Part shown: positions 3,964-20,681 of the stretch, piece after piece
Layout of the letters: every line of letters starts with the position of its first letter
Position numbering within the stretch: position 1 is the first letter of the stretch
Assembly (NCBI GenBank): GCA_965233175.1
Contig: CBDDRW010000099.1
Location: 1,121-65,120, forward strand
DNA from: an uncultured bacterium
Lineage (GTDB): Bacteria; Nitrospirota; Nitrospiria; Nitrospirales; Nitrospiraceae
Length of the DNA stretch: 64,000 nt
Reading direction: 5' to 3'
Notes under the pieces: model-generated
The model's database searches: none
Told to the model about the DNA's origin: nothing
The model's input: the letters and a program-made list of their open reading frames with translations, nothing else
Program-made: the position numbers and the translations under genes

Positions 3964-5349
3964 TCAAAATTTGAAGACCGGGGCATCGTTGCCGAATCGT
4001 TTCTTACGGAGTTCTTCCATCAGCTCGATAGTAATTAAGGGAATGCGGTTCTCGCGTGCGTGCTTTTCAACGCCTTTTTTCACCATGGCGCGCAAGAAAT
4101 AGGGAATTCGGCTGAGCCGTGCCTCTGAATCTTCATCCCACGCCACGGAGCTTTCTTCAGGCGTATTAAATGCGACTTTGATCTTCTCGCCGCCCTTTGG
4201 GGTGTACAGACACCATTGATCTTCGTCCAGCCAGTCGCCGTGATCGACGTAGGGGCGTGCGCGGCAACCACCACAGATATCGGTGTATTCGCAATCGCCG
4301 CACTTACCTTTCAGCTGAGGATAGCGGAAGGAATTGAAGACGTCGGACCTTTCCCATAGATCGACGAAGCTGGTCTCGCGAATATTACCGGCGGACAACG
4401 GCATGTAGGGGCACGGGGTCAACTCGCCGTTAGGGGTCACACGGGCGTAGTTGGTGCCGGCGAGGCAGCCTCCCCCCATATAGCCAGTCGCTTTCGTGAT
4501 CGGAGAATTCGGATCTTTTTCATACGCAAGCCGTTTGAAATGCGGCGCACAGCGGGCTCTGACGAGCATACCTTTGTAATTATCCTGACAATTGACTAGG
4601 TAACCGAGTACCTCTTCGTATTGTGTTGGGGTGATGTCGGTCAGTTCCTCGCCTCGGCCGGTGCAGACCATAAAAAAGACATTGAGCACTTTGGCGCCAA
4701 GTTGGTGCGCCCAATCGATTACCGAGGGCAGCTCCTGGTAATTCATAGGCTGTGCGCTGAAGTGCACTTGGAAAGCCAGCCCGTTCCGCTTACAGGCCTC
4801 GATGCCGGCAAGCGCGGCCTCCCATGCGCCGGGCACGCCTCGGAAACGATTATGTTTCTGAGAGTCGAGTGAATCGATACTGATGCCCATGCCCATCACG
4901 CCGATCTCGACCAAGGTCTTCGCCATTCGATCATCGATCAACATACCGTTGGTTCCGAACACCACCATGAAACCGAGTTTCACGGCATGCCGCGCGATAT
5001 CAAGGATGTCGGGGCGGACAAGTGGTTCGCCGCCCGTGATCACGAGGAGGCAGCCTTTGTTGACCTCAGCAATCTGATCAATCAGCTTGTAACACTCTTC
5101 CGTCGAGAGTTCATCGTCCCCGCCGGCGGATTTCGTCGTCGCATCGAGATAACAGTGGTCGCACTTGAGATTGCAGCGCTTCGTGAGGTTCAGCGCGATG
5201 AGATAGGGCTTGAAGTCATCGACTGTTCGGCCATCGTGCGGCGCAGCAGCCATAGATGGCGGGCTAAAGAACTGCGAGACCTGTTGCTGGATATTGCCGA
5301 ATGCGCCCGCTGCAGACGGGGCATTGAAAATTGGAAGCGATTTACCCAT
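3964..5349 (-). CDS. Radical SAM enzyme with SPASM domain and a C-terminal PCP_red-like module
   Basis: CNLKCDHCY (CxxxCxxC); SPASM cluster motif CGDCEYTDICGGCRARPY. C-terminal VAWDEDSEARLSRIPYFLRAMVKKGVEKHARENRIPLITIE matches the ChlB/BchB C-terminal domain pattern. Confidence 0.88.
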   Translation of the reverse strand: MGKSLPIFNAPSAAGAFGNIQQQVSQFFSPPSMAAAPHDGRTVDDFKPYLIALNLTKRCNLKCDHCYLDATTKSAGGDDELSTEECYKLIDQIAEVNKGCLLVITGGEPLVRPDILDIARHAVKLGFMVVFGTNGMLIDDRMAKTLVEIGVMGMGISIDSLDSQKHNRFRGVPGAWEAALAGIEACKRNGLAFQVHFSAQPMNYQELPSVIDWAHQLGAKVLNVFFMVCTGRGEELTDITPTQYEEVLGYLVNCQDNYKGMLVRARCAPHFKRLAYEKDPNSPITKATGYMGGGCLAGTNYARVTPNGELTPCPYMPLSAGNIRETSFVDLWERSDVFNSFRYPQLKGKCGDCEYTDICGGCRARPYVDHGDWLDEDQWCLYTPKGGEKIKVAFNTPEESSVAWDEDSEARLSRIPYFLRAMVKKGVEKHARENRIPLITIELMEELRKKRFGNDAPVFKF

Positions 5350-5458: not shown

Positions 5459-7567
5459 TTACGATTTTGTCTTGCCGGTCAGGTTGGCGATCATGTCTTT
5501 CAGGTTTCCGGTTTTCATGGCTTCCGCCATGTAGTCCTTGGCCAGTTCGATGCCCTCATGAGCCACTTCGGCCGTAATGGCCGTGACACCGATCTTATCG
5601 GCATGTTTTTCGATAAGGGCACGCGTACAGTCGCGCATAAACCCTTCAGGAGCTCGTTCGAGCCGTGATTGCGCCTCCGGCGTCCACGTGTAGGAAGCCA
5701 CTGAAGCAGGTTCCACCACGTGGCCGTTCTCCTGACCATTCTCTTGCGAGATCGCCGCTCTGTTGGCGCCATTCGTAGCAGCTGTTACAGTCGCCTTGGC
5801 TTCGGTCGAAGTGCCGGTCCCCTTATTCGCAAAAATAGGCGTGTAGTCCTCTGAGGCTGCCTCCTGAATCATGGGCGCGGCATACTCCAGCGTGATCGTG
5901 GTCATACCGAGCTTACGAGCAGTCTTCTCGATTTTAGCCTTGGCGCGCCGACGTTGGTAGCCGGCTGGGACTGCACGGATTCCATCTTTGGCGTCTTTGG
6001 TCCATTGCATAGGGACATCGTCGTAGGCCAGGTCGGTTTCGAGGACCCCTTCCACATGGGCCGCCGCTTCGAAAAGCTTCTTGTCAACCAGTTTGAAGCG
6101 CTCGCCTCCTGCGGCACAGACCGGGCACTTCACAGGCGTCTCGCCCTTCCCGATGTAGCCACAGCCGTCGCAGACGAAGTAATCCTGAGTCATCCGGTCT
6201 AAATAGGCCTGAGTATTGGCACTCACTTTTGGCTTCTCCTCCACGATCTCAGTCATCATCCCGCTGAGCGTGGAACCCATAAGATCCTTCATCACAGATT
6301 CGTCGGCCTGCATCTTGTTGCGGTCGATGCCGGCGGCATCCAGGCTGCCGCCCAGCGCACGCATCGCATCCATCGCGCCCTTGGGCAGAAGATGTCCCAC
6401 AGCCGTGTCGACGACGGTATTACTGATAATGGTATGGCCCTTCTCGATGGCGTAGCGGTGAATCGCGGTCTTGGCAACGCCTCTGGCAAATACGGGGATC
6501 TTTTCCATCCGGCGGAGGGCTTCCTCAGTCCAGGCAATCGTGTATTCCGCCAACGTATCGATCGGCGGCACATATTTCCGGTTCGACACGAGAATATTAC
6601 AGGGGGCGGACCGCAAGAGATTTTCCGTGTTGCTACCGATGTCCATATCCTCGTCGCTGTGCACGCCGATCCGTCCGACGATCAGCAAGGCTGGGATATC
6701 TTTGCGTACGTATTGAATGATCTTCTCGAAGGCCTTGCCATCCAACAGAGTGGTCTTCACGTCGGTTTGTTCGCCCTGAGCGATTTCACGGCAGATATCC
6801 AGGTGCGACTGATAGATCTTTGCAAGGCCGCTGTCGATAATTTCCTCGTGGAGTTTTTCCTGCTCTTTGAATCGGAACACCTTGCCGGCTTCCTCGTTGA
6901 GGACACCGGAAATACTGTGGAAGGCGGCATAGTGGAAATAGGGATCGAAGGCAGAGATCGCCTCGACCGGCATATTGAATGCTTTGCCCAGCGCCAGGCC
7001 GGTCATAAGGCCGCCGAACGAATAGGGGCTGCCGTCCACCGCCACCACGATTCTTCCGCCGGTCATGGGTTGAGTTTGCTTGATGATCAGCATGTCAGAA
7101 TTCCGCACGCGACGCAGCACGCGCTCGGTGTTGCTGCCGATGACACTGTCCTTCACCGCGCCGACCCCCAAGGCGCCCATGATGACCAGGTCGTAAGCAT
7201 TGGTATTGATGTCTTCGGCCAACACCTTCCAATTCCGACCTTCGAGAGAACGACGCTCGATAGGCAGGTTGTTTTCCGCACATTTCTTATCAACATAGTC
7301 GAGGTAGGAATCGGTGATGATCTGGAGCCCGCGGGTAATCAACGAATCGTGGATTTGGCGCTGCCGGTCGAGTTCTTTTTCATCGTGGTACTCCTCAGGC
7401 AAGCCTGCTTCCATCTGCTTGAAACGCTTGTCGTGCATTTTGGCTGCATAGACGTGGCTCCCCACGATCTTCGAACCAAAGGTTTTGGCAAAATGAACTC
7501 CGACATCGACAGCCGTATTGGAATGGTCGGAATTATCGACCGGTACATAGATCGTCTTATACATCAA
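5459..7567 (-). CDS. Tandem universal-stress-protein (Usp) domains, 3 PCP_red-like modules and a Cys4 zinc ribbon
   Basis: Usp 1 spans aa 1-165 and Usp 2 aa 170-330 (VPVDNSDHS..., VAVDGSPYS..., GSNTE motifs). PCP_red-like W-T-x-E/D-A modules lie at about aa 344-390, 520-568 and 626-675. Zinc ribbon is CDGCG...CPVC at aa 466-484. Confidence 0.85.
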   Translation of the reverse strand: MMYKTIYVPVDNSDHSNTAVDVGVHFAKTFGSKIVGSHVYAAKMHDKRFKQMEAGLPEEYHDEKELDRQRQIHDSLITRGLQIITDSYLDYVDKKCAENNLPIERRSLEGRNWKVLAEDINTNAYDLVIMGALGVGAVKDSVIGSNTERVLRRVRNSDMLIIKQTQPMTGGRIVVAVDGSPYSFGGLMTGLALGKAFNMPVEAISAFDPYFHYAAFHSISGVLNEEAGKVFRFKEQEKLHEEIIDSGLAKIYQSHLDICREIAQGEQTDVKTTLLDGKAFEKIIQYVRKDIPALLIVGRIGVHSDEDMDIGSNTENLLRSAPCNILVSNRKYVPPIDTLAEYTIAWTEEALRRMEKIPVFARGVAKTAIHRYAIEKGHTIISNTVVDTAVGHLLPKGAMDAMRALGGSLDAAGIDRNKMQADESVMKDLMGSTLSGMMTEIVEEKPKVSANTQAYLDRMTQDYFVCDGCGYIGKGETPVKCPVCAAGGERFKLVDKKLFEAAAHVEGVLETDLAYDDVPMQWTKDAKDGIRAVPAGYQRRRAKAKIEKTARKLGMTTITLEYAAPMIQEAASEDYTPIFANKGTGTSTEAKATVTAATNGANRAAISQENGQENGHVVEPASVASYTWTPEAQSRLERAPEGFMRDCTRALIEKHADKIGVTAITAEVAHEGIELAKDYMAEAMKTGNLKDMIANLTGKTKS

Positions 7568-7720
7568 AGTGTCTCCTCAGGATGCCCTTCAGGCAGGGCG
7601 AACGAGAGTAATTATGAAAATTTCCAAACGGTTGACGTGCTTTCCACGTCTCAAAGAACGTGTATGCTAGCACCGGTCTGAATTCGAATGCAAGGTATCG
7701 ATGCAGGCAGCAGAACGACG

Positions 7721-9349
7721 TTATGATGCGGGGGTAACAACAGATCGTTCACCTGGATCATTTGCGGAGCGAATCGATTGTCGGGAGCGGAGGATCTCTT
7801 CCAAAGATAAGAGCGCATCGCGTCCGGAGTTCCCCTCAATCCCTCGAATCAAATTCTTGTCGGCGTATTGGCCCGATTCTTTCGGGGCTTGAGAGAGGGA
7901 TCCCGTCCACTTTCGTGGGTCCCTGCTTCCCTCTTTACGCTCCCAGGCACGGAGGCAGGCCTTGGCGATAAATGAGTTCAGCGGTGCCGGGTTATACAAG
8001 AGCTTCCTGATACTCGTCGGAGTCAGCATCAGGGGATTATAGCCGGCTGAGAGGTACCCTTCTTCCAATAGCCGTTGTTCCAGATCGGTATTCGGCTGAA
8101 TGCCTAAAAAGAACATGAGGGGAAAGACTCGCTCCTCACCCAGGATTGAGGCAACTTTTTTATAGGACTCCACGCTTTGGAGCAGAGACTCCTCGGTTTC
8201 TTTCGGGCTGTTCAAAGAGTAGTTGAGAATGACCTTGCCTTTGAATCCGGCTTCCGCCAGATAGCGGCAACCATCGTATAGCCGCTCAAGCTTGAATCCC
8301 ATATGGAGGTCGTTCAACACCATTTGGGAGCCCGACGTAATAGCGACCTCAAGATCGCCGACGCCGGACCGGACCATGAGTTTGGCCAACTCTGGGGTGA
8401 TCAGCGACGTCCTGATATAGCCGGACCATTCGATCTCCAGCTTCTCTGCGAGAATCCGTTCAAGGATCTCGGTGCATTGGGGATAGGCTTCTTTCCCGGT
8501 AATAAACTGGGCATCCGTGAACCAGAACCGCCTGGCACCCCATTGATGGTAGTGCTGAGAGATATCCTTGACGACCATGGAAGGTGGCCGATAGCGGACT
8601 CGCTTCCCTTCGATGTAGGGATAGAGACAGAACGCGCAGTCGTACGGGCAACCTCGCTTCGATTGGACCCCGATGGATTCGTCCAGATACTCTCGATGTT
8701 GCGGGAAAATCGAGGTCAGGTAGGGTAAATCGACAGTCAGCGCATCAAGCAGAGCCGGCGAGCCCTGCTGGCCCTTTCGAATGGTCTTCCCTTCCCGAAG
8801 AATGTAGCGTTCGTTCTCCAGCGACTGGCCTTCTATGACTTTGAGAATCGCGTCTTCCCCTTCACCAAGAATCCCAATGGTGCCTTCCGGAAGCTTCAGA
8901 ATGAGCTGATCGGCAAACGCGGTAAAGGCCCCGCCACCGATCATGATTTGCGCCTTCGGAAACTCCTTCGCGATCAACCAGGGATAGGAAAGCGCTGCCC
9001 GGATATGGCTGTAGTAACGATAGAGCTGCTTCACCCCCGCAAACGAGGCGGCAACCCGCTTGAGTGGATTGCTAGCAAAGTAGAAATTAAACGCGTGTTC
9101 CAACGAGGAGTCTCCCTCGTGCGGGGAAAAGATCTGAATGTCGCGCCAGGAGAAACAGACGAGGTCCGGTTTGAACTCGGTCGTCGCATCGCGAACCGCA
9201 CTGAGCCGATGGCCATCGGGGAAAAGCGACAGGTCAATAATGCGCTGCCGCACGTCCGGCTTGCGTCGATGAATAAAATCAGCGAGATAGGTTGCCCCGA
9301 TGGGGTAGACCTTCTTGCATGGGAGAAAAATATATAGAATCGATTCCAT
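7721..9349 (-). CDS. Class B (B12-binding-domain type) radical SAM enzyme, BchE-like architecture
   Basis: SKRGCPYDCAFCLYP (CxxxCxxC) follows a Rossmann-like N-terminal domain of about 230 aa; 542 aa. Confidence 0.82.
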   Translation of the reverse strand: MESILYIFLPCKKVYPIGATYLADFIHRRKPDVRQRIIDLSLFPDGHRLSAVRDATTEFKPDLVCFSWRDIQIFSPHEGDSSLEHAFNFYFASNPLKRVAASFAGVKQLYRYYSHIRAALSYPWLIAKEFPKAQIMIGGGAFTAFADQLILKLPEGTIGILGEGEDAILKVIEGQSLENERYILREGKTIRKGQQGSPALLDALTVDLPYLTSIFPQHREYLDESIGVQSKRGCPYDCAFCLYPYIEGKRVRYRPPSMVVKDISQHYHQWGARRFWFTDAQFITGKEAYPQCTEILERILAEKLEIEWSGYIRTSLITPELAKLMVRSGVGDLEVAITSGSQMVLNDLHMGFKLERLYDGCRYLAEAGFKGKVILNYSLNSPKETEESLLQSVESYKKVASILGEERVFPLMFFLGIQPNTDLEQRLLEEGYLSAGYNPLMLTPTSIRKLLYNPAPLNSFIAKACLRAWERKEGSRDPRKWTGSLSQAPKESGQYADKNLIRGIEGNSGRDALLSLEEILRSRQSIRSANDPGERSVVTPAS

Positions 9350-9423
9350 CGCGTTCTCAGTTAGACGTTCTCAGTTCTGAGTTCCGAACAACTCAGAACT
9401 CAAGACTCAGAACTAGGCACTGG

Positions 9424-10197
9424 CTATTTGGTGGCTACATGGATCGCCACGATCCCGCCGCTCAGATTTCGATACATCACCTGACGATAGCCTACGTCGA
9501 GGAGCATCTGTTTCAAGCGTTCCTGATCCGGGAAGTTCCGAATGGAGGCCGGAAGATATTCGTACACGCCGGTCGTGTCATGCGCTACTTTTGTGCCGAC
9601 CCAGGGAAGAAGCCGGAACGAATACCAATCGTATAGAGCCCGCAGCCACCCAAAGATCGGTCGGGAAAACTCCAGGCACACAAACCGCCCGCCTGGTTGC
9701 AAAATTCGGTGAATATCCGTGAGCGCTTGCCGAAGATTACCCACATTCCTCATACAAAACCCTGTCGTCACAGCATGAAACGTCCCATCGGGAAATCCCA
9801 GATGTTCGGCATTGGCTTCGAGGCAGGTAATCTTCTGTCCCAGGCCCCGCACGGTGACTTTCTTCAGGCCTTCGACCAGCATGGCATGGTTCAGATCGGA
9901 GGCAATGACGCGGCCATTGGTCCCCATGCGCGGTTCGACCAACAGCGCGAGATCGGCTGTGCCGGATCCGACGTCGAGCGCCCTGCCTCCCGTAGTGACG
10001 GGTACATAGGAGGCGGTAATCTTCTTCCATCGGTAGTGGAGTCCAAAGCTCAGGAGCGTGTTGTTGAGGTCGTAGACGCTAGCGATCGACGTAAACATCC
10101 GCTGAACGGCTTGTTCACGGGCCGAGCCAGTCCAAGTCGAGACGGCTTGGGCCGGAGGCGTGGCTGATGAAACCGGGGGTTCTTCAAGCTTGAGCAT
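9424..10197 (-). CDS. ubiE: Demethylmenaquinone/ubiquinone C-methyltransferase
   Basis: UbiE signature YDLNNTLLSFGLHYRWKK; SAM motif ALDVGSGTADLA. Confidence 0.9.
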   Translation of the reverse strand: MLKLEEPPVSSATPPAQAVSTWTGSAREQAVQRMFTSIASVYDLNNTLLSFGLHYRWKKITASYVPVTTGGRALDVGSGTADLALLVEPRMGTNGRVIASDLNHAMLVEGLKKVTVRGLGQKITCLEANAEHLGFPDGTFHAVTTGFCMRNVGNLRQALTDIHRILQPGGRFVCLEFSRPIFGWLRALYDWYSFRLLPWVGTKVAHDTTGVYEYLPASIRNFPDQERLKQMLLDVGYRQVMYRNLSGGIVAIHVATK

Positions 10198-10301
10198 GCC
10201 GCGATGGTTGCACTCGCTTCAACGTGTTGTCAAGCATGGATTCGCCTGCCTAGAGTCGCCTGCCGCTTGGTGAATGTGAAGACCTCTGACAGGAAACATT
10301 C

Positions 10302-11717
10302 TTGGCGAATCAAAGGATGAAAATCCTTGTTACTGTTAGGAAAAACGATTATAGGTGCTTCCAGAATATGGCACGCAGATTTTTTCGCTCTTCCATACAA
10401 GAACTAGAAGCGTTGTGTAAGGAGAAACACAACAACGTCGATTTTCTTCTTGTGTTGGAAGAAGAGCTGAGCCATCGGAAAACTGAGCGTGCAGCAAGAT
10501 TACGCAATCAGATCAAGGAGAGACTTGCGGTATTGAGACCCGGAACACCCTCGCGAGAGCAGGTTTCTGCAGAACCACCGCCACCTCAATCATCTCAGCA
10601 TCAATCGGTTCCTCACCCGCACGAAAAGCAAGAGCCGTCCCACCCTCATCCGCTTCGCCCTGAGAATCCTGTTGTAGGCCTACCCTCCGGGGGTAAGGGA
10701 GAGCCTCCGCCGCTGCCACCAATTACTAACAGACCGGACGATGTTCTTTCGGCATGGACAGCACTGGAAGTCCTTTCGCCACCTACCTACGTCGGGTCCG
10801 AAGACTTAGCTGGAGGTGATAAGAGAAGAGTCTCCACTCTAAACGAGCAGTCTCTTCCGTGGGAGCGAGGTGAGAAGTCACGGCCGAATCAACGTCTTTA
10901 CTATCAGGTCGTTCTCGGCTCCATAAAAATGGGATCAGCGATAGGCCGTCTCATCGAACGATATGGTGACAGTCGCGAGGAGAGGCCAGGGGTTCGTGGG
11001 AAAGCGGTTCTTGCTATCATTGTGGTTAATCGCCAGGGCCAGCTCGTTGAGTCGCCAGCAGTTGGGATTTCTAGCTTCGGCTGGGGCGTAATGTCCGCGC
11101 TAAACGGCGAGTTGGCAGACCTTGGGCGATGGCCAGACGTTGAATCACCGTTGGTTGATCGAACCGAGAAGCTCCTTCTCGGAATAGTGCCGGGAGATGA
11201 AGACAGAGAGGAACATCGAGCACGTCCACTTACACGAGCGGCGCTGTTTGCCGCATACGAGGCACTTGTCCATGAACTGGGTTTGCCAAGGGAATGGGTC
11301 GAGCCAGCGGAGTTTGCAATTCGTTCATACGTCTATTTCAAAGATCCTAACCCACCAGAGCCTCTTTTACTCAATAGCTTCTTTCTCGCCGACCTCGCGC
11401 TCGCTCAAAAGCTATTCGCAGCAGGCAAAGCGCCACAGAATCTCCGACGTTATCTCGGCGTCGAACGTCCACAGCACCGTCGGGATTTGTTGCACGATAC
11501 CGCCGCATTGGCAGAAGCTGTTAGCCCAGGTTTCACCAATCCCTCACGCTGGCCTGGCATAGGCCGTTCCCCGCTAGTATTACTTCAGCAAGCAGCCGTC
11601 AACCTGTCATTCCGAGAAACGAAGACTGGTGGGTTGCTCGGTATCAATGGGCCACCTGGCACTGGAAAGACGACGTTGCTTCGAGATCTGGTTGCCGGAG
11701 TGGTTACTGAAAGCTGA
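10302..11717 (+). CDS. SF1 (Upf1/DNA2-like) helicase, N-terminal segment: unknown 450-aa region plus Walker A; ends at a frameshift
   Basis: The ORF ends 17 codons after GPPGTGKTTLL, so a Walker A motif has no helicase core behind it in this frame. TTG start per ORF track; ATG alternatives at 10317 and 10368. Confidence 0.75.
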   Translation: MANQRMKILVTVRKNDYRCFQNMARRFFRSSIQELEALCKEKHNNVDFLLVLEEELSHRKTERAARLRNQIKERLAVLRPGTPSREQVSAEPPPPQSSQHQSVPHPHEKQEPSHPHPLRPENPVVGLPSGGKGEPPPLPPITNRPDDVLSAWTALEVLSPPTYVGSEDLAGGDKRRVSTLNEQSLPWERGEKSRPNQRLYYQVVLGSIKMGSAIGRLIERYGDSREERPGVRGKAVLAIIVVNRQGQLVESPAVGISSFGWGVMSALNGELADLGRWPDVESPLVDRTEKLLLGIVPGDEDREEHRARPLTRAALFAAYEALVHELGLPREWVEPAEFAIRSYVYFKDPNPPEPLLLNSFFLADLALAQKLFAAGKAPQNLRRYLGVERPQHRRDLLHDTAALAEAVSPGFTNPSRWPGIGRSPLVLLQQAAVNLSFRETKTGGLLGINGPPGTGKTTLLRDLVAGVVTES

Positions 11718-13902
11718 AGTAATGGCTAAATTCGACGATCCAGAGACTGCATTCGAGCATTCTGGAGAAAAACTCAAGGCTGGTGCGAGCTGGATTCATC
11801 TCTATCGGCTGAATCCAACATTGCGTGGGTTCGAGATGGTCGTGGCATCATCAAACAACAAAGCTGTCGAGAACGTGAGCGCAGAGCTTCCGAGCCTTAG
11901 TGCCATTGCAAATGACGCCCAGGAGCTGCGCTACTTCAAGACGCTGTCTGACGCAATGCATCAATCTGATACCTGGGGAGCTATTGCCGCTGTATTAGGC
12001 AATATGCAGAATCGCAGCCGATTCAAGCAGGTCTTTTGGTGGGACGACGACAACGGACTTAGCAACTACTTACGAGCTGCAACGGGTTCAGCCAAAGACA
12101 TAGAAATAACCGATCCAGAAACAGGGCATGTCGATCATCGAACACCACGCATTGTCGAAGCAGAACAGCCTCCATCTAGCCGAGAGGAAGCCCTCGAACG
12201 GTGGAAGAGCACCCGGAAGCGATTTCTGAAGGCGTTGGGCGAAAGCCGCCGCCAGCAAACATGGTTAGAGGGCCTTTACGCCGAGTTAAAACGAGTGCCT
12301 GAGTTGGCTCAGGGGGAAGCGAGCACCAAAGCGCAATTTGATGCTGCAATAAAAACCGTCCAACAACACAAAGATGCGGAATCGATAGCGCAGCAGGCAG
12401 AAACCGAAGCAGGGCATCAGCTTGAATATACAGACCAAGAGCTTCGCGCGCATGGCTTGGCAAAGCCGGGATTTTGTGCGCGATTGTTCAGAACACGCCT
12501 TGCACGCGAATGGTCAGACAAGTTGACATCTCTTCGCGCCAATCATCGCGGAGCGAAGATGCAACACACAAAAACAACTGCGGAGCGCCAGCGCATCAAA
12601 GATGAACTCCGTCCGGCGGTGCTCGAACAACAGAACGCCGAAACTGCCTGGCAAGCGGCTTGCGCACAACATCAGCAGGCGAAGCAACGACTTGTTGAGG
12701 CTCAGGAGCAGGGGGTTATCCTTGCAGATGATGCGTTCTTCTCGGCAGAGCACGGCAAGCGGCACCAAGTAACACCGTGGTTTTCTCCATCTGCCCAACG
12801 CCTGCGTGACGAGGTTTTCATTTCCGCGATGGCGATGCACCGTGCTTTTATTGACGCAGCTGCCAAGCCCTTGCGTCACAACCTCGGAGCCTTGATGAAT
12901 GTGTTCACGACACAGACGCTGCAAGGCCATGAGAAACAGGCGTTGCTACCGGATTTGTGGGCCTCACTTTTCCTTGTGGTGCCATTGATCTCAACTACAT
13001 TTGCATCTGTCAACCGAATGCTAGGCAAGTTGCCACCTGAAAGTCTCGGCTGGTTGTTTGTGGATGAGGCTGGCCAAGCATTGCCGCAAGCTGCGGTTGG
13101 CGCACTCTTGCGAACTCGCCGAGCCGTTGTTGTTGGCGACCCTGTTCAGATTGAGCCAGTGGTTGCGCTTCCTGATACATTGACACAGGCCGTCTGTCGC
13201 CGCTTTGGTGTAGACCCTGACCACTATTCGGCCCCATCAGCTTCAGCACAAGCCCTCGCTGACTCTGCGTCCTCCTACACCACTGAGTTCCAAACCCATG
13301 TCGGCAGTCGGAATGTCGGTGTGCCGTTGTTAGTACATCGCCGATGTTCAGAACCGATGTTCAGTATCTCCAACACGATAGCTTACTCCGGGCTGATGGT
13401 GTCTGCAAAATTGTCGAAGCCATCTGCCATTCGTGATGTGCTTGGTCCCTCTGCATGGATTCACGTCGAAGGCAGCGGTGAGGATAAGTGGTGCCGAGAG
13501 GAAGGCGACGAAGTTCTGCGCATGCTCCATCAATTAAAGCAAATGGGTGTAAAACCAGACCTATATGTCATCACACCTTTCGTCATTGTCGCAGACCGAT
13601 TACGCCAAACGATACGTGAGAGTGATGTGCTCGGAGGATGGGTCAGTGATGATGAATGGCACTGGATCAACGAGCGAATTGGTACCGTGCATACCGCACA
13701 AGGACGTGAAGCTGAAGCGGTCATTCTTGTACTAGGAGCACCGCACCCAACACAAACCGGCGCTCGTGGTTGGGCTGGTGGCCGGCCGAATTTACTGAAC
13801 GTAGCCGTCACACGCGCAAAGGAAACTATTTACGTTGTCGGCAACCGGCAGCTTTGGCGTGAGGCCGGTTTATTCAGAGAACTTTATAGGCGGCTTCCAT
13901 GA
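11713..13902 (+). CDS. SF1 (Upf1/DNA2-like) helicase, C-terminal segment: motifs Ia to VI
   Basis: VASSNNKAVENV (Ia), FVDEAGQA (II), VVGDPVQIEP (III), TVHTAQGREAEAVI (V), NVAVTRAKETIYVVG (VI). The frame continues from the previous ORF if one A of the run at 11710-11712 is removed. Confidence 0.88.
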   Translation, partial: AEVMAKFDDPETAFEHSGEKLKAGASWIHLYRLNPTLRGFEMVVASSNNKAVENVSAELPSLSAIANDAQELRYFKTLSDAMHQSDTWGAIAAVLGNMQNRSRFKQVFWWDDDNGLSNYLRAATGSAKDIEITDPETGHVDHRTPRIVEAEQPPSSREEALERWKSTRKRFLKALGESRRQQTWLEGLYAELKRVPELAQGEASTKAQFDAAIKTVQQHKDAESIAQQAETEAGHQLEYTDQELRAHGLAKPGFCARLFRTRLAREWSDKLTSLRANHRGAKMQHTKTTAERQRIKDELRPAVLEQQNAETAWQAACAQHQQAKQRLVEAQEQGVILADDAFFSAEHGKRHQVTPWFSPSAQRLRDEVFISAMAMHRAFIDAAAKPLRHNLGALMNVFTTQTLQGHEKQALLPDLWASLFLVVPLISTTFASVNRMLGKLPPESLGWLFVDEAGQALPQAAVGALLRTRRAVVVGDPVQIEPVVALPDTLTQAVCRRFGVDPDHYSAPSASAQALADSASSYTTEFQTHVGSRNVGVPLLVHRRCSEPMFSISNTIAYSGLMVSAKLSKPSAIRDVLGPSAWIHVEGSGEDKWCREEGDEVLRMLHQLKQMGVKPDLYVITPFVIVADRLRQTIRESDVLGGWVSDDEWHWINERIGTVHTAQGREAEAVILVLGAPHPTQTGARGWAGGRPNLLNVAVTRAKETIYVVGNRQLWREAGLFRELYRRLP

Positions 13903-13992
13903 AGCAAATTCCTGTGAACGCGGATTGCTCGGTCAGAGTTAAACTGAGACCCACGTGACTTCTGTACACCCACTGTAGTCTAAGCCCCATGT

Positions 13993-13998
13993 TATAAT
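13993..13998 (+). promoter_or_regulatory. Candidate -10 box (TATAAT) inside a conserved 17-mer CATGTTATAATCCCGCC
   Basis: Perfect TATAAT lies 79 nt upstream of the ATG at 14077. The same 17-mer (16/17 identical) recurs at 15088-15104. Confidence 0.4.
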
Positions 13999-14076
13999 CC
14001 CGCCCGTCCGCGAGACTGATTTGAGAGTGCCCTAGATCTAAACGGACCCTAATAGGCTGAGCAAGGAGGTAGTTCC

Positions 14077-14994
14077 ATGTTTGGTTCCCTCGCGATTGAA
14101 ATTTCGATCAGCCTTTCGCTGCTTTATCTCTTGTTAGGGTTGATGTGCTCCGTTCTGAACGAATGGGTGGCCGGTGTCCTGAATATGCGAGCGAAGAATC
14201 TCTGGGACGGTGTGCGGAATTTATTGTATGACTCGGAGGGAACAGGACTGGCCAAACAGTTGTACGACCATGCTCTGGTCAAGAATTTGGGAAAAGCCGG
14301 CGCGCTCCCCTCGTATGTTCCTTCTCGGAACTTCGCGTTAGCACTGTTCGACCTGGTTGCCCCGGTGAAGGACTCGACAACCACGAGAACGATACAGGAT
14401 ATTCGGAATGCGATCGCCGATATTCCAAATCCACAAGTCAAAAGCGCACTGGTCGCCTTGATTGACGAAGCTGGAGACGACCTCAAAAAGGCGCGGGAGA
14501 ACGTGGAGCGATGGTATGACGACGCAATGGATCGTGTGTCCGGGTGGTATAAGAGAAAAACCCAGGTCTTCATCCTGCTATGGGCACTCGCGGTGACCTT
14601 GTCGGTTAATGCCGATACGATCTTAATCGCGAATACGCTCGCTCATGACGCCACATTGCGCGCGTCATTGGTTGCAATGGCAGAGGCGACGGCCAAAGAG
14701 CCGCTGCCTCAGGATGCTAAGGGAACGACGGAACGAGTCCAGCAGATGTCTTCCGAGATTAAGAAATTGGGGCTTCCAATTGGATGGTCCTCTGACGCCA
14801 AAGACCCGACGTCTGTTCCTGCTGGGATCGGAGGGTGGGCACTCAAGATTATCGGTCTATCGCTTACGGCGATTGCTGTTTCTCTTGGGGCCCCATTTTG
14901 GTTCGATGTCTTGAATAAACTGATCAATATTCGTTCTGCCGGCAAACAGCCGGAGAAAGCGCATCACGAAAAAGACCCGGCCAGTAATAAATAG
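14077..14994 (+). CDS. Integral membrane protein, function unknown
   Basis: Strong SD (AAGGAGG) 7 nt upstream. TM segments lie at the N-terminus, at about aa 165-190 and about aa 255-285 (GAPFWFDVLNKL). Confidence 0.65.
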   Translation: MFGSLAIEISISLSLLYLLLGLMCSVLNEWVAGVLNMRAKNLWDGVRNLLYDSEGTGLAKQLYDHALVKNLGKAGALPSYVPSRNFALALFDLVAPVKDSTTTRTIQDIRNAIADIPNPQVKSALVALIDEAGDDLKKARENVERWYDDAMDRVSGWYKRKTQVFILLWALAVTLSVNADTILIANTLAHDATLRASLVAMAEATAKEPLPQDAKGTTERVQQMSSEIKKLGLPIGWSSDAKDPTSVPAGIGGWALKIIGLSLTAIAVSLGAPFWFDVLNKLINIRSAGKQPEKAHHEKDPASNK

Positions 14995-15092
14995 TTCACG
15001 AGTTAGAAACTTTTTCGCCATAAGACTGCGAATAACGCCTCTTTATCCAAAGTTCATTTTGGTGTGTCCTCCGCTCCTAGATTCTCACATGC

Positions 15093-15098
15093 TATAAT
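15093..15098 (+). promoter_or_regulatory. Candidate -10 box (TATAAT) 10 nt upstream of the uvrA ATG
   Basis: CATGCTATAATCCCGCC at 15088-15104; the ATG at 15109 begins [15 protein letters not shown]. Confidence 0.4.
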
Positions 15099-15108
15099 CC
15101 CGCCTCTG

Positions 15109-17616
15109 ATGCAGAACTCGATCGTCATTAAAGGGGCACGGGAGCACAATCTCAAGAATATCGACGTCACGATCCCGCGTGACCGGCTCGTCGTGATCAC
15201 AGGGCTGAGCGGGTCAGGCAAGTCCTCGCTGGCCTTCGACACGATCTATGCCGAGGGGCAGCGGCGGTATGTCGAGTCGCTCTCAGCCTATGCTCGTCAG
15301 TTCCTTGAACAGATGGGCAAGCCCGACGTCGATTCGATCGAAGGTCTCTCGCCCGCTATTTCCATCGAACAAAAGAGCACCAGCCACAATCCCAGGTCCA
15401 CGGTCGGTACCGTCACAGAAATTTACGACTATCTCCGTCTCCTGTTTGCCCGGGTTGGGCGACCCTCTTGCTTTCAGTGCGGCGAGGACATCACCGCGCA
15501 GACCGTGCAGCAGATGGTCGATGCCATCGGCTTGCTGCCGGAAGGAAGCAAATTTCAGCTCGTAGCTCCAATCGTTCGAGGCAGGAAAGGGGAGTACCGA
15601 AAAGAATTGCTCGACATGCGACGGGCCGGCTACGTCCGGGCGAGGGTCGATGGTCAGCTGGTGGACTTGGGCGAGGAACTCGCGCTCGATAAACAGAAAA
15701 AACACACGATCGAGATCGTCGTCGATCGATTGGTGATGAAACCCAGCGAAGCGTTGACGCGCCGGCTGGCCGATTCGGTAGAGAGCTCGCTGAAACTCGC
15801 CGGCGGGCTTGTCGGAGTGCTGACGGACAACGGGAAAATGTCACTGTATAGCGAACGATTAGCCTGCATCCGCTGCGGCGTCAGTTACCCGGAAATCACT
15901 CCGCGCGTCTTTTCGTTCAACAGCCCGCACGGAGCCTGTCCTGCTTGCGACGGCATCGGCTACGCCATGACGCCCGGCTCTGCGGACGATGAAGACTTCA
16001 CGTTGTTGGAACCCTGCGAGGTGTGCAAGGGTGCGCGGCTGCGGCCTGAAAGCCTATCGGTCAAGATATCAAAACAGTCGATTGCGGAGGTGACGCATCT
16101 CTCCGTGCGAGCCGCCGCCGACTTCTTCGCATCGTTGAAATTCACCGAGCGCGAATTGACGATTGCCCATCGCATTTTGAAAGAAATTCGCGAACGGCTT
16201 GGGTTTCTCGTCAACGTCGGGCTGGACTACCTGACCTTGGATCGTGCGGCCGCCACCTTGTCCGGTGGAGAAGGGCAACGCATCAGGCTCGCCACGCAAA
16301 TAGGATCCGGTCTTGTCGGCGTCCTCTACATCCTGGATGAGCCTTCAATCGGTCTGCATCAACGGGATAATCGGCGCCTGCTCCAGACCTTGCTGCGCCT
16401 GCGCGACTTGGGCAACACGGTGGTCGTGGTCGAGCACGATGCTGAAACGATGATGGCGGCGGACCATCTGCTGGATATGGGGCCGGGAGCCGGGACCCAC
16501 GGAGGCCAGGTCATTGCCCAGGGCACGCCGACCGATGTCATGGGGAATCTCGATTCGCTGACAGGCCAATATCTCAGAGGCACGCAGATGGTCAGCCTGC
16601 CTCGCCGCCAGCGAAAGGCTAAGGGGCTGCTGTCCATTGTGGGGGCGAAGAAACACAACCTCAAAGGGATGACCGCCAAGATTCCGCTCGGCCTGCTCAC
16701 CTGTGTGACCGGGGTGTCCGGGTCCGGAAAGAGTACGCTGGTGCTCGAAGTGCTGTTTCATTCCCTCTCCCAGTTGCTCTATCACAAAAAACCAAAGATC
16801 GACGGCTGCAAGGAGCTGCTGGGCGCCGACGCGCTGGATAAAGTGATCGACATCGACCAGTCCCCGATCGGCCGAACTCCGCGGTCGAATCCGGCGACCT
16901 ATACCGGTCTCTTCAGTTTTATCCGGGATCTGTATTCCAATCTGCCTGAGTCCCGCGTGCGGGGCTATAAACCAGGCCGCTATAGTTTCAATGTGAAGGG
17001 TGGACGCTGCGAAGCCTGCCAGGGCGATGGGTTGATCAAGATCGAAATGCATTTCCTGCCGGATGTCTACGTGACCTGTGAGGTCTGCAAGGGACAACGG
17101 TACAACCGAGAGACGATGGAGATTCACCATAAAGGAAAAAGCATCGCCGACGTGTTGAATATGACGGTGGACGACGCCGTCGAGTTCTTCGAGCATATCC
17201 CGTTCATCAAGCGAAAGCTCGACACCTTGCACGATGTCGGGTTGCACTACGTGAAACTCGGCCAATCAGCCACGACGCTGTCCGGGGGCGAGGCGCAACG
17301 AGTCAAACTCTCACGCGAACTGTCGAAGCGTCCGACCGGTCGCACGATGTACATCTTGGATGAGCCGACGACCGGGCTTCACTTTGCCGATGTGCAACGG
17401 TTGCTGGATGTGCTGGATCGGTTAGTCGAAACCGGCAACACCGTGGTCGTGATCGAACACAATCTCGATGTGATCAAGAACGCCGATTGGATTATCGATC
17501 TCGGGCCGGAAGGCGGCGAGCGCGGCGGTGAGATCGTGGCCGAAGGGCCACCCAAGGAAATCGCTAAATCGAAGCGGTCGTATACAGGGCAGGTGTTGAA
17601 AGAAGCAGGGGTATGA
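15109..17616 (+). CDS. uvrA: Excinuclease ABC subunit A, a variant lacking the insertion domain
   Basis: [34 protein letters not shown]; two ABC modules ([24 protein letters not shown]). 835 aa from the Met at 15109. Confidence 0.95.
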
Positions 17617-17623
17617 GCGGGGT

Positions 17624-17806
17624 GGAAGGGTGGATCTTTCGGGAGTCGGTATAATGCGTTGGAGAGGGACTGCCAATCTCCCCTTACTGCAAACCGCGTG
17701 CTCCTCTGAAGCGCGACCGAGGGTCGCATGCCGTCGCACAGCGGCACTTCTCTGGCTGTCATCTTCCTGTGCCTGCTATGCCGACTCCCGAAAGATCCAC
17801 CCTTCC
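17624..17806. repeat. 183-bp element bounded by perfect 26-bp inverted repeats (MITE-like or structured RNA)
   Basis: GGAAGGGTGGATCTTTCGGGAGTCGG at 17624-17649 is the exact reverse complement of 17781-17806. Confidence 0.9.
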
Positions 17807-17906
17807 ATCCCGCAAGAAGGAATGGGCGAAAGTGACTGACGGCGCAAATTGCCATCAGCCGCTTTCCGTTTTATTCGGAGAATAAAGTGACTCATTTGAA
17901 ATTGTT

Positions 17907-18254
17907 ATGGATCACTGGGTGATTGTTAATTTGCTTGAGAATCCGTCCTTTGCCGCCCCAAAAGCTAAAATTATCTCGCTCTGCAAGAAAGGGTTTTGTG
18001 TTTTGGTTCTAAACAATTTGGTATGTGCACGATCATTAAGAGATGGCAATAAGGTTAGAGCCAAGGACCTTTGCGCTAAGATCGAAGCTCTTTCAAAACA
18101 AGTTCCCTGTCTCTGGATTAGACCCAGGACGGAATTGCAAGAAAACGAGGTAGCTGAAGCGTTCTTTAGAATTATGGTGGTGGTGTATCAGAAGGGAAAT
18201 CCTTTTCGCGATGAAGCCGTTGCCATAACACAGATGACAGGCGCATCCTACTGA
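17907..18254 (+). CDS. Hypothetical protein in an AT-rich patch
   Basis: ORF only; no motif recognised. Confidence 0.3.
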   Translation: MDHWVIVNLLENPSFAAPKAKIISLCKKGFCVLVLNNLVCARSLRDGNKVRAKDLCAKIEALSKQVPCLWIRPRTELQENEVAEAFFRIMVVVYQKGNPFRDEAVAITQMTGASY

Positions 18255-18282
18255 ACAAGACCTGGTCGATCTACAGCACGCG

Positions 18283-18468
18283 GTGGGGGTCGTCCCGTAT
18301 GTTGACGTTGCGGTTCTTGATGGTAAATTCTGGAAATATGCTTTGACCGTCAAAAAGAATTGGAAGGGCGCGGAGCCGTTGGCTAAATGCTTTGATAATG
18401 TTACCGCCGCATTGGATTGGATCGAAAAAGAAGCCGTCCTCCACACTGATCATCGCTTCCGTGTCTAA
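18283..18468 (+). CDS. Hypothetical small protein
   Basis: ORF only (GTG start); lies 29 nt after the previous ORF. Confidence 0.25.
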   Translation: MGVVPYVDVAVLDGKFWKYALTVKKNWKGAEPLAKCFDNVTAALDWIEKEAVLHTDHRFRV

Positions 18469-18655
18469 TCTCACCTCATTCCCTCTCAGTTTCCTCTGCT
18501 ACATGCAACAATGCCCTTGTTATGACAAACAAGGGATAGTCCTAGGTGTCTTTGTATAGGTGATGGCTGTACTTTCAATACATCATCACCTTACGTGTAG
18601 GCAAATAAGGGACATCGAGCAAGTGAAACGAGGATATTGAGAAGGAGGGGGCAAC

Positions 18656-19069
18656 ATGGGAAGAACATTGTGGTGTTTGCTCATCGTGGGCAGCTGTCTG
18701 GGTCTATCGGCGTGTAATACGACGAAGGCGACGATAGACAGTACCGTCAAATTCTTTTCGAGCACCAGTCCGAACTCACTGTTCACCGCCGATGGAATGG
18801 TCGAACCTAAGCAAAGGATCAATCTGTTCGCGGGAGTGACCTATGAGAATCTGCGCCAAGAAGCCGCGGCTGGGAGTGGTCAATATGTCACAGCATTGGC
18901 TGTGTTGTATGGGGTGCCTGTGGCCCAACGTGAAGACTTTGGGCGGGTCTTGCAACAACGGCATACCGAATTGTTTGCCGCCGACCTCAAGGAAGACTCC
19001 CAAGCACATCTCAAGATGGTCAGCGTCCTCAACCGCGTTCTTGCCGGCGAGGGATTGGCAAACCAATAG
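18656..19069 (+). CDS. Lipoprotein, DUF3015-like
   Basis: SD GAAGGAGGGGG. Signal peptide plus lipobox LSAC. The segment NLRQEAAAGSGQYVTALAVLYGVP resembles DUF3015 proteins; family assignment is from memory. Confidence 0.55.
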   Translation: MGRTLWCLLIVGSCLGLSACNTTKATIDSTVKFFSSTSPNSLFTADGMVEPKQRINLFAGVTYENLRQEAAAGSGQYVTALAVLYGVPVAQREDFGRVLQQRHTELFAADLKEDSQAHLKMVSVLNRVLAGEGLANQ

Positions 19070-19225
19070 ATCAATGGATGATGCATTGGCGAGGAACAAA
19101 GGATGAATGGGAACGATAGTGACGGTTCTATTTTGTGGCTGCTCGACGTCCCTCTGTAGGTCTCCTTATGGTTTTGAGAAAGTGAAAAGGCAGCGCGCAG
19201 AGTGGTCACAAAGAAAGGAAACATC

Positions 19226-19612
19226 ATGATGTCTCGTAAGACGGGATTTCTACTACTTGCTGCCGTTGCGCTGGGTTCGTTGCCTGTACTGGCCGCTGAT
19301 ATAGAGATGCAGGTCGTGGACAAGAATTGCTGGGTCGAGATCTTCGAGGATGACAACTTCGATATCAACGATCCGCATGTCAAGCTGCAGGGGCCGAAAG
19401 AGTATGCGACGTTGAAGAATCTGTCCGGCAAAGACTGGAGCAATGACATCGAAAGCGTCATTGTCGGGTCCAACGCCACGGTGGTGGCTTATGAAGATAA
19501 GGATTTCAAGGGGACGGAACTTGCCTTCGCTGCGGGCCAGCATGTCCCCAATCTCGGCAAGCTCGACATGGCGAACGATATCGAATCGATGAAGATTACC
19601 TGCGGGAAATAA
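19226..19612 (+). CDS. Secreted beta/gamma-crystallin-like domain protein
   Basis: Signal peptide MMSRKTGFLLLAAVALGSLPVLAAD. Two Greek-key-like repeats (EIFEDDNF...SNDIESVIV and VAYEDKDFKG...ANDIESMKI). Confidence 0.65.
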   Translation: MMSRKTGFLLLAAVALGSLPVLAADIEMQVVDKNCWVEIFEDDNFDINDPHVKLQGPKEYATLKNLSGKDWSNDIESVIVGSNATVVAYEDKDFKGTELAFAAGQHVPNLGKLDMANDIESMKITCGK

Positions 19613-19628
19613 GCCGGGTGGGGTGAAT

Positions 19629-19665
19629 ACCGGATGTTGTTCTCGCACGAAGAGCAGCATCCGGT
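19629..19665 (+). terminator. Stem-loop 17 nt after the stop codon (15 bp including 2 G-U pairs); no U-tract
   Basis: ACCGGATGTTGTTCT pairs with AGAGCAGCATCCGGT. Confidence 0.4.
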
Positions 19666-20076
19666 AATCGCATTCGTTGCTGAGAGCGTACATCTCGTTC
19701 AGTCTCACGACCAAGAGACACTCTGACTGCCGCCAACAGTTCAACCGAAAAATCTCATTCGCCGACAACGGAGTCGTTCAGCTCGCCTGAACTTTTCATT
19801 CCATGGTTCTCGAGGATACATCTCGACGGATGTGTCGGCATTCCCCAAATTGGCGTGCTCGTCGCGAAGAATCTGCCTGAGTATCCCGTCATTGCGAGTA
19901 ATGGAGCTGCTGGAGGATGCGAGGCTGCGGTCCCAAAACAGGAGGCGCATTCACGATGCCCGGGTCAGTGTAAGTCACGTCTGAATCGTGGGTAATTAGA
20001 CTCGGATGATGCTATGAGGTCGTCGATATGAACCCATTCTTTGCACGATTGTCTTCTGTAATCTCATCAACACAGA

Positions 20077-20376
20077 CTAGGGGCGCCAGAATGCCTCCCA
20101 ATCCTCTTGCCGAATTTGTAATGCTCGAAGCACATCGACTGGAAGACCTGTGGATACCTGAGCCTGGGCTTCATACCCTACTATTTGTTTGTGCAAAATG
20201 AACGCCATGGCTTTTAAATGCTGGAGGCTCAGCCGAACCGTGGCCACCCGTTCAATGGGCGGCGGAACGCCAGGAGCGACCGGATTGGCCCCAGAGACTT
20301 GAAAATTCAGCGTACACCCGAGCGGCCCAAGGTTGAGTTGAAATTGGTCGGCATAGACATCAGGGGTTTCAGCCAT
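20077..20376 (-). CDS. DUF3467-like small protein
   Basis: The Met at 20376 is preceded by a GGAGG SD. YADQFQLNLGPLGCTLNF... resembles DUF3467; family assignment is from memory. Confidence 0.55.
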   Translation of the reverse strand: MAETPDVYADQFQLNLGPLGCTLNFQVSGANPVAPGVPPPIERVATVRLSLQHLKAMAFILHKQIVGYEAQAQVSTGLPVDVLRALQIRQEDWEAFWRP

Positions 20377-20681
20377 ACGTCCTCCTAGAAAATTTGGTTG
20401 TTCGAGCGAAGCGATATTAGCGTTCATGATGGGATGTGGTCAATGGAGTAAACCCTGCGCCAGCACCGGCTTCCCGCCTCAATCGGCTTATCAAGCCTAC
20501 CCCCTTTTCCGCTTGAAGCGACAAGGGTTCGCCCGTAAAATGCCGCCTGCTTCTTGTCGATTCTGCGGAGAGACCATGCAGAACTTCGGACAATCACGCA
20601 TTCGGTGTTCAGACCGGCCGTCCACTCCGCCAAACAGACACGCGGGGTCCCTGCCTCAGGACATCAAGGATATGGTGGTCT

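Follow-up and report, generated by a model that had tools for sequence, protein, structure and literature searches.

A putative mobile Upf1-like helicase gene, related to the Mokosh helicase module and interrupted in its reading frame, between ubiE and uvrA of a Nitrospiraceae genome

Mokosh systems combine a Upf1-like helicase with a PLD nuclease, and the active sites of both are required for defence (Millman et al. preprint, 10.1101/2022.05.11.491447). In Mokosh type II, the PLD domain (HxKx4D) is located at the C-terminus of the same protein (10.1101/2022.05.11.491447), and a later preprint describes Mokosh II as monomeric and as acting on a narrow range of phages. When we searched the literature for the Mokosh mechanism and for PLD-less variants, only the original description and one comparative preprint on nuclease-NTPase systems were found. 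Here, we examine a helicase gene related to the type II protein in a 64,000-nucleotide stretch of DNA (the window) from an uncultured bacterium of the Nitrospiraceae (GenBank assembly GCA_965233175.1, contig CBDDRW010000099.1, positions 1,121 to 65,120 of the forward strand). A preliminary description, prepared from the DNA letters without database searches, had read positions 10302..13902 as one open reading frame (ORF) of about 1200 amino acids between ubiE and uvrA, and had pointed to large helicases of Mokosh-type systems. On balance, we lean towards the reading that the gene encodes a mobile helicase of conflict or defence type that has been inactivated in the window. As judged by sequence comparison, what is new is a PLD-less, MkoC-like helicase that carries an N-terminal domain without known relatives, and the family is missing from present defence catalogues save for partial MkoC matches.

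Helicase anatomy and relation to Mokosh

Once its reading frame is repaired as described below, the gene is predicted to encode a superfamily 1B (SF1B), Upf1-like helicase of ~1177 amino acids. Motifs I, Ia, II, III, V, and VI follow one another in order, and all of the superfamily 1 (SF1) motifs quoted in the preliminary description were located in the window, on the + strand like every other part of the gene: motif I or Walker A (GPPGTGKT) at 11649..11672, motif II or Walker B (VDEAGQA) at 13060..13080, motif III (GDPVQ) at 13135..13149, motif V (TVHTAQGRE) at 13684..13710, and motif VI (VAVTRAK) at 13801..13821. Pfam family AAA_12 was matched above its cutoff (E 9.6e-13) and AAA_11 at its cutoff (E 4.6e-06, 27.0 bits). 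A profile built from 70 full-length homologs matched only Upf1, IGHMBP2, Sen1, and Dna2 among PDB sequences (E 8e-10). For the structure, we used an AlphaFold2 model of P0001, an intact Nitrospira homolog with 94% identity (predicted local confidence, pLDDT, 85; predicted fold score, pTM, 0.79), in which two RecA-like domains are seen with accessory insertions in RecA1. The best Foldseek match of the full model was SETX (9e-15), followed by Upf1, Dna2, and IGHMBP2 (1e-11 to 1e-9); Aquarius and ZNFX1 were also matched, with E-values of 9e-15 to 2e-7 overall.

With amino acids counted from ATG 10368, the protein is predicted to begin with a three-helix module (amino acids 10-56; 10395..10535; pLDDT 81-94) that is conserved in alignments, with E33 and R37 invariant. 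It is tethered by a disordered, P/Q/H-rich linker (amino acids 58-111; 10539..10700; pLDDT about 30) whose length and sequence vary among homologs; the P/Q/H-rich stretch that had been noticed earlier is found at 10575-10661 and shares this predicted disorder. The ratio of nonsynonymous to synonymous substitution rates (dN/dS) is about 0.4 for amino acids 1-115, that is, for the helical module plus the linker. The next part is a family-specific N-terminal domain (N-domain) of ~300 amino acids (amino acids about 117-400; 10716..11567), modelled with a pLDDT above 90 for most of its length. An alpha/beta subdomain comes first, and a helical 'LLNSFFLxDL...RWP' segment then runs into LLQQAAVN (11580-11603). 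The N-domain is under strong purifying selection, with a dN/dS of 0.10 and a constraint equal to that of the motor. Because of this value and a dN/dS of 0.16-0.23 overall, we consider the helicase protein to be under selection.

No relative of the N-domain was recovered outside the family. The first ~420 amino acids (450 or so in the preliminary description) gave no Pfam, NCBIfam, or PADLOC family match, as had been anticipated, and no homology of the N-terminus to a housekeeping replication or repair factor was found when it was searched for. Nothing significant was returned by a Pfam scan of 63 diverse N-domains at E<=1, by comparison of an N-domain profile with PDB sequences at E<=10, or by Foldseek comparison of the confident AlphaFold2 model of the domain with PDB and BFVD. 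DUF7382 appeared in 4 of the 63 N-domains at E 0.004 and was taken as noise. In the 150 clusters listed out of the 541 found, the domain occupies residues ~100-400 of proteins of ~1100-1250 amino acids or is found on fragments. Among members down to 24% identity, the residues that stay conserved in it are chiefly W, G, and P, together with one E, one D, and two S. A reading of the domain as a PD-(D/E)xK or other nuclease was rejected, as the domain lacks a conserved D...(D/E)xK or H-based motif and, in VVVDxxG, the window and several relatives have N in place of D.

Between motifs Ia and II, the preliminary description had proposed a probable coiled-coil insertion of about 230 amino acids rich in Q, A, E, and R. 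The coiled coil is upheld by the AlphaFold2 model, and an antiparallel arm of about 178 amino acids, rich in A, E, Q, R, and L, is placed at 12169..12702. In the P0001 model, it is built from long helices at 606-698 and 711-783 with a loop at the tip, and helix length would give it a reach of ~13 nm. The tip bears the motif KPGF(W/C)ARLFRT (12463..12495), the residues of which are invariant or nearly so in the homolog alignment, and the coiled coil has a dN/dS of 0.27. By analogy only, the arm resembles the long antiparallel coiled coils that extend from the ATPase domains of SMC/Rad50-type ATPases and of the dynein stalk and that also have a conserved tip; Foldseek returned weak matches to the dynein stalk and to Lamassu LmuACB. 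However, the ATPase fold is a different one and neither a hinge nor a zinc-hook is present, and the likeness is architectural, not homologous.

Among PADLOC models, MkoC of Mokosh type II was the best match, with E 1.8e-48 for the 3' ORF of the window and E 1.4e-60 for the intact P0001, in which residues 402-1167 align in one stretch to positions 248-949 of the 1136-position profile. The window family and MkoC have in common a single-gene unit, a Upf1-like (COG1112) SF1 helicase, and an entire helicase module that aligns as one piece, with the long insert separating motif Ia from motif II included. In contrast, the last ~187 profile positions (950-1136), which represent the C-terminal PLD nuclease, are unmatched in the window family, as are the first ~247 positions, in place of which the family has its own ~420-amino-acid N-terminal region. 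There is no room for a PLD domain because the protein stops 27 amino acids past motif VI, and neither the window ORFs nor the domains listed for 120 homologs include a Pfam match to PLD. The Ser/Thr kinase (Pkinase) of Mokosh type I was not matched in the window ORFs or homolog domain lists either. The window family also differs from type I (MkoA + MkoB) in having no adjacent PLD nuclease gene, and MkoA profiles match the RecA2 part only. In agreement with the preliminary description, no nuclease domain or nuclease partner was found. The link to Mokosh that it drew is thus sustained for the helicase module and fails for the system, because the defining PLD nuclease is absent. Furthermore, at about 0.3 bit per position the MkoC score is modest, and sequence comparison therefore places the helicase in a remote sister family of the MkoC helicase module rather than in MkoC itself.

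The PADLOC models MkoA, Hhe, and PDC-S37, and for relatives also Nhi, gave short motif-level matches only; those to Hhe and, for relatives, Nhi were short P-loop or motif-level matches with E 1e-3 to 1e-6, and Upx gave no PADLOC match. Unlike Nhi, Hhe, Upx, and the DNA2-like helicase-nucleases, the window family has no recognisable fused nuclease, be it PD-(D/E)xK, Vsr/HEPN, or similar. With the eukaryotic helicases SETX/Sen1, UPF1, IGHMBP2, DNA2, Aquarius, and ZNFX1, it shares two RecA domains with motifs I-VI and insertions in RecA1. It differs from these SF1B enzymes in lacking a CH domain, a DNA2-type nuclease/iron-sulfur domain, and an N-terminal SETX solenoid, and in that the 1C 'stalk/prong' appears to be swapped for an antiparallel coiled coil of ~180 residues with a conserved tip; moreover, the window family is bacterial, mobile, and patchy in its occurrence.

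The interrupted reading frame

Positions 10302..13902 do not form the single ORF of about 1200 amino acids that had been described but hold two + strand ORFs in different frames, at 10302..11717 (471 amino acids) and 11629..13902 (757 amino acids). Read from alignments, the gene consists of 10368..11717 followed by 11713..13902. According to the ORF list and homolog conservation, the 5' part runs from an ATG (MARRFF...) to a premature TGA stop created by the frameshift, and the upstream ORF ends in ...GPPGTGKTTLLRDLVAGVVTES*. The 3' part, in the +1 frame, runs from AEVMAKFDD... to the stop codon and contains motif Ia, the 1B/1C elements, the coiled coil, and RecA2; the downstream ORF carries on as ...AEVMAKFDDPE... 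with the rest of the SF1 motifs. As such, motif I and the remaining helicase motifs are in different frames in the window. The start codon is most likely ATG 10368, because homolog conservation begins there, and TTG 10302 is a mere ORF boundary; an AGGTG is located 10-14 nt upstream of the ATG.

The split just past Walker A is caused by a 2-bp deletion at 11711..11712, where AG is missing from GAAAG[AG]CTG. In DNA alignments, the window reads GAA--AGCTG and four close relatives (L008, L001, L090, and L155) read GAAAGAGCTG; over a longer stretch, the window reads GAA--AGCTGAAG and all four relatives read GAAAGAGCTGAAG (VVTERAEVMAKF), with the deleted form of the site in the window being GAAAGCTG. 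These four relatives are uninterrupted at the site, and the closest relatives are 88-94% identical in protein. A programmed frameshift was ruled out, as all relatives encode one continuous ORF. Split after Walker A, the product of the window copy is very probably non-functional, and this copy of the gene is probably dead.

It is possible, if somewhat doubtful in our judgement, that the 2-bp gap arose in error during assembly or sequencing and that the gene is intact and functional in the host organism. The gap is the sole disruption in the helicase gene, and the missing AG falls within a short AGAG repeat after an A run, a context that is indel-prone on some platforms; however, slippage at AGAG is also a natural mutation. 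The dN/dS of the repaired window copy (0.16-0.21) equals that between intact copies and gives no sign of decay, but a recent inactivating mutation would likewise leave this ratio unaltered, and it is compatible with a very recent mutation and with an error alike. Against an error, no other obvious split genes were seen elsewhere in the window, so the assembly does not seem to be generally indel-ridden. When the window's own ORF was looked up in the assembly collection for recurrence of the frameshift, no record was found.

Two further pairs of same-strand ORFs, at 752-2192 and 39238-42284 (both on the - strand), lie in different frames and share 101 and 181 nt, which may reflect over-extended start codons or additional frameshifts.

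Insertion between ubiE and uvrA

The flanking genes are ubiE and a uvrA-like gene, as had been stated. We compared 80 metagenomic loci in which ubiE shares 77-94% identity with that of the window; both flanking genes are visible in 64 of them. In 52 of these 64, ubiE and uvrA are immediate neighbours, less than 300 bp apart, and the other 12 hold inserts of 0.8-6.4 kb. The helicase itself was found in only 3 of the 80 loci, namely L090, which is one of the 12 with inserts, and L091 and L155, in which uvrA is off the contig end. Because so many close relatives have an empty site, the helicase is identified as an insertion; the possibility that it is a core gene of the family at this locus, which had been raised as a test of the preliminary description, is contradicted by the same count. 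The ubiE/uvrA intergenic region is short and divergent: in most empty sites, the aligned ends of the two genes are about 54 bp apart. Four empty-site relatives (L100, L093, L097, and L106) align to the window until about 10146-10160 and resume at 15088, and comparison with empty-site relatives gives the single-gene insertion with the helicase an approximate extent of 10236..13985 (+ strand). The insertion splits the uvrA promoter (TTGTCAAGG, about 17 nt, TATAAT): the -35 box (TTGTCAAG) stays at 10227, beside ubiE, and the -10 box is found beyond the helicase, at 13988-14004 and at 15088-15104.

These two positions delimit a separate 1.1-kb cassette (13988..15104, + strand), which is bracketed by the 17-nt direct repeats CATGYTATAATCCCGCC; each repeat corresponds to the uvrA promoter's extended -10 box. 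The cassette encodes a 305-amino-acid membrane protein (14077-14994) with no family match. It sits alone in the ubiE|uvrA site in five relatives, and a PIN/antitoxin pair replaces it in L001 and L008, the two closest helicase-bearing relatives. The membrane ORF had been raised as a possible partner of the helicase. We rejected this candidate and treat the cassette as independent, as it is absent from the other helicase loci, occurs by itself in the five relatives mentioned, and has its own duplicated promoter. The ubiE|uvrA gap is an insertion hotspot with varied cargo, including the helicase, the membrane protein, the PIN/antitoxin pair, and other inserts of up to 6.4 kb.

The base composition of the helicase gene also sets it apart. 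GC content at third codon positions (GC3) is 0.48 and 0.52 for the two halves of the gene compared with 0.64-0.71 in the neighbouring ubiE, radical-SAM, and uvrA genes, which places the helicase about 3 standard deviations below the large ORFs of the window (window GC3 about 0.65). The first 300 nt have a GC content of 0.507 compared with 0.553 for the window. Both the commoner A/T-ending codons and the AT-richer 5' end of the preliminary description are therefore reproduced, and the horizontal acquisition it suggested is borne out by the empty sites, by the atypical GC3, and by a family scattered over many phyla and plasmids. That the helicase gene is accessory and horizontally acquired rather than housekeeping is supported by these observations.

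Several further features of the locus were recorded. The uvrA-like gene (15109-17616) starts at ATG 15109 and encodes only 835 amino acids; the UvrB-interaction domain is present, the UvrA DNA-binding insertion domain gave no match, and the gene may be a short UvrA variant or a paralogue. L001, the closest long relative (ENA contig_24934), retains 126 bp from the 5' end of uvrA as a remnant behind the helicase, at 4667-4791. L001 also has two uvrA copies; at 8427-12581, the second of these runs at its 3' end into another helicase copy, of which the 3' two-thirds are present. This junction is within about 10 bp of the frameshift site of the window, at a short similarity (KEIAKS / EEMAKF), and may reflect either a genuine rearrangement or a chimeric assembly. 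Just downstream of uvrA in the window, GC content falls to 0.46-0.49 at 17700-19200, where small ORFs without an assigned family are found except for a DUF3015 protein. An 845-amino-acid ORF at 20682-23219 gave a weak match to the HerA/DUF87 P-loop.

Distribution of the family and its possible role

The gene had been called an orphan. It stands alone at its locus, yet it belongs to a family of at least 541 clusters at 50% identity, as obtained with phmmer against 1.84 billion representatives. Relatives occur in at least 564 of 185,579 species representatives, covering Alpha-, Beta-, and Gammaproteobacteria, Verrucomicrobiota, Acidobacteriota, Bacteroidota, Actinomycetota, Firmicutes, Gemmatimonadota, and Nitrospirales, and among these representatives the N-domain is kept down to about 27% identity. 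In Nitrospira CP060499, the family gene is located beside a transposase and a Dam methylase, and toxin-antitoxin genes are frequent neighbours of the family. Sequence comparisons thus point to a family that is laterally mobile as a single gene.

Full-length members are carried on 16 plasmids, including those of Rhizobium, Agrobacterium, Xanthomonas, Acidiphilium, and one Klebsiella plasmid. The helicase module is found on 777 plasmids, of which 617 are predicted to be conjugative and 549 are from Klebsiella; the listed examples of the latter are IncFIB/IncHI1B conjugative plasmids. A 964-amino-acid Klebsiella relative (WP_246863407.1) is 35% identical from LLNSFF through Walker A, the coiled coil, and RecA2 to the C-terminus, and the last third of the N-domain (LLNSFFLxDL...RWP...LLQQAAVN) is common to the family and this shorter plasmid helicase. 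It also has an arm tip (KPGLLANLF), has MkoC as its best PADLOC model, and is likewise without PLD. Unlike the window family, it has no N-terminal helical module, linker, or alpha/beta part of the N-domain, and it is located in a plasmid transfer region. In the one Klebsiella plasmid examined (K. pneumoniae p_dm770b_NDM1, IncFIB/IncHI1B; L010), this MkoC-like, PLD-less helicase with the same arm occupies 6326-9220, just after traG and inside the transfer region. No described function was found for it.

We searched for partners by all-against-all BLAST of flanking ORFs in 87 loci and by Pfam and PADLOC scans of the 150 nearest and 150 next-nearest neighbours. No conserved partner was found, the top flanking cluster being present in 7 of the 87 loci, and neighbours are oriented at random. 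Among the 150 nearest neighbours, 110 Pfam families are represented, each at most twice. Defence-type neighbours do occur: genes for SngC, BrxH, Zeta toxin, and SLFN-like helicase are among the nearest, and PIN genes are also seen. The commonest Pfam family of the wider flanks is Resolvase, in 3 of 150 proteins. One member is found in Klebsiella phage Kp4866-6 (OK490421; L170), in an integrase-flanked island of prophage type at 6124-20747. Its order is two tyrosine integrases, then a family member of 1209 amino acids, then a Gabija-like GajB/GajA pair (a UvrD helicase and an OLD/TOPRIM ATPase) and a DEAD/ResIII helicase; the island also contains a 406-amino-acid ORF of no assigned family, and SieB is located further upstream. 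The association of the family with defence islands is anecdotal, not statistical.

A defence or conflict role is plausible for the family on indirect evidence, though unproven. Under the reading we favour, the intact protein would be a nucleic-acid surveillance or conflict factor, directed against phages or plasmids or used in competition between mobile elements. It may load on single-stranded RNA or DNA of the invading or competing element and translocate 5'->3' at the expense of ATP, with the N-domain and the tethered helical module gating or targeting the motor. The conserved arm tip could touch a partner molecule or a second protomer, allowing dimerisation. Without a nuclease, the effect might be achieved by unwinding or stripping replication or transcription intermediates, or by handing these over to host nucleases. 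In the host genome, the gene itself has landed within the uvrA promoter, separating its -35 box from its -10 box, at a hotspot where related strains have other cargo. More tentatively, and as a proposal that we would not call probable, the family could be a nuclease-free, single-protein system of immunity or inter-element conflict that shares its helicase ancestry with Mokosh type II, in which an N-domain of new fold would serve as sensor or effector instead of PLD and the arm with its conserved tip would couple target recognition to the motor.

Several points weigh against a defence-type role. The wider neighbourhoods in 79 genome loci consist mostly of ordinary metabolic and regulatory genes, and the defence-island signal is weak because of this. 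Among the residues conserved across the family, the N-domain has no nuclease-type catalytic signature, and no effector domain is recognisable in the helicase protein. The 5'->3' polarity and the choice between RNA and DNA as substrate are what we infer from the superfamily only. A literature search found no experiments on the window family. As the window copy is broken, it permits no inference on activity in the host organism. Finally, the location of the 964-amino-acid Klebsiella relative suits a role in plasmid biology as well as it suits defence.

This last point leads to an alternative that we regard as unlikely, in which the gene serves the mobile element: it would be a factor of a plasmid, an integrative and conjugative element, or a prophage that acts on transferred single-stranded DNA or RNA, processing or protecting it, for establishment, anti-defence, or exclusion of rivals, and chromosomal copies would be remnants. 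The abundance of the helicase module on plasmids predicted to be conjugative speaks for such a role, as do the Klebsiella relative between traG and other transfer-region genes and the full-length members on plasmids of Rhizobium, Agrobacterium, Xanthomonas, and Acidiphilium. Members in the genomes of Bartonella, Rickettsiaceae, and Paracaedibacteraceae, and serine recombinases and transposases among the neighbours, are also in its favour. However, most chromosomal copies, including that of the window, are lone insertions without a nearby relaxase, type IV secretion system, or integrase, and the full family with its N-domain is on only the 16 plasmids. Defence cargo is common on plasmids and prophages, so carriage does not discriminate between this role and defence. 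A housekeeping helicase for repair or RNA quality control, functionally tied to the adjacent uvrA-like gene and recalling the eukaryotic housekeeping enzymes Upf1, SETX, and Dna2 as nearest solved relatives, is highly improbable and largely excluded by the presence/absence data, with an empty site in most close relatives, unrelated neighbours in other genomes, occurrence in only about 0.3% of species representatives, atypical GC3, and a frameshifted copy in the window that has no visible replacement.

If, as the favoured reading of a conflict or defence helicase would have it, intact members protect against phages or plasmids, then Upf1-like helicase immunity would be possible without the PLD nuclease that Mokosh needs. 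This would bear on target recognition by Mokosh and by its proposed analogues in the eukaryotic piRNA pathway, and the defence repertoire would gain a new domain fold. PADLOC-type profiles match the family as MkoC over about 60% of the model, so automated calls of 'Mokosh type II' in environmental genomes may include PLD-less proteins. For the host genome, the helicase gene is an accessory one that was recently acquired at a promoter-embedded hotspot and is now disrupted.

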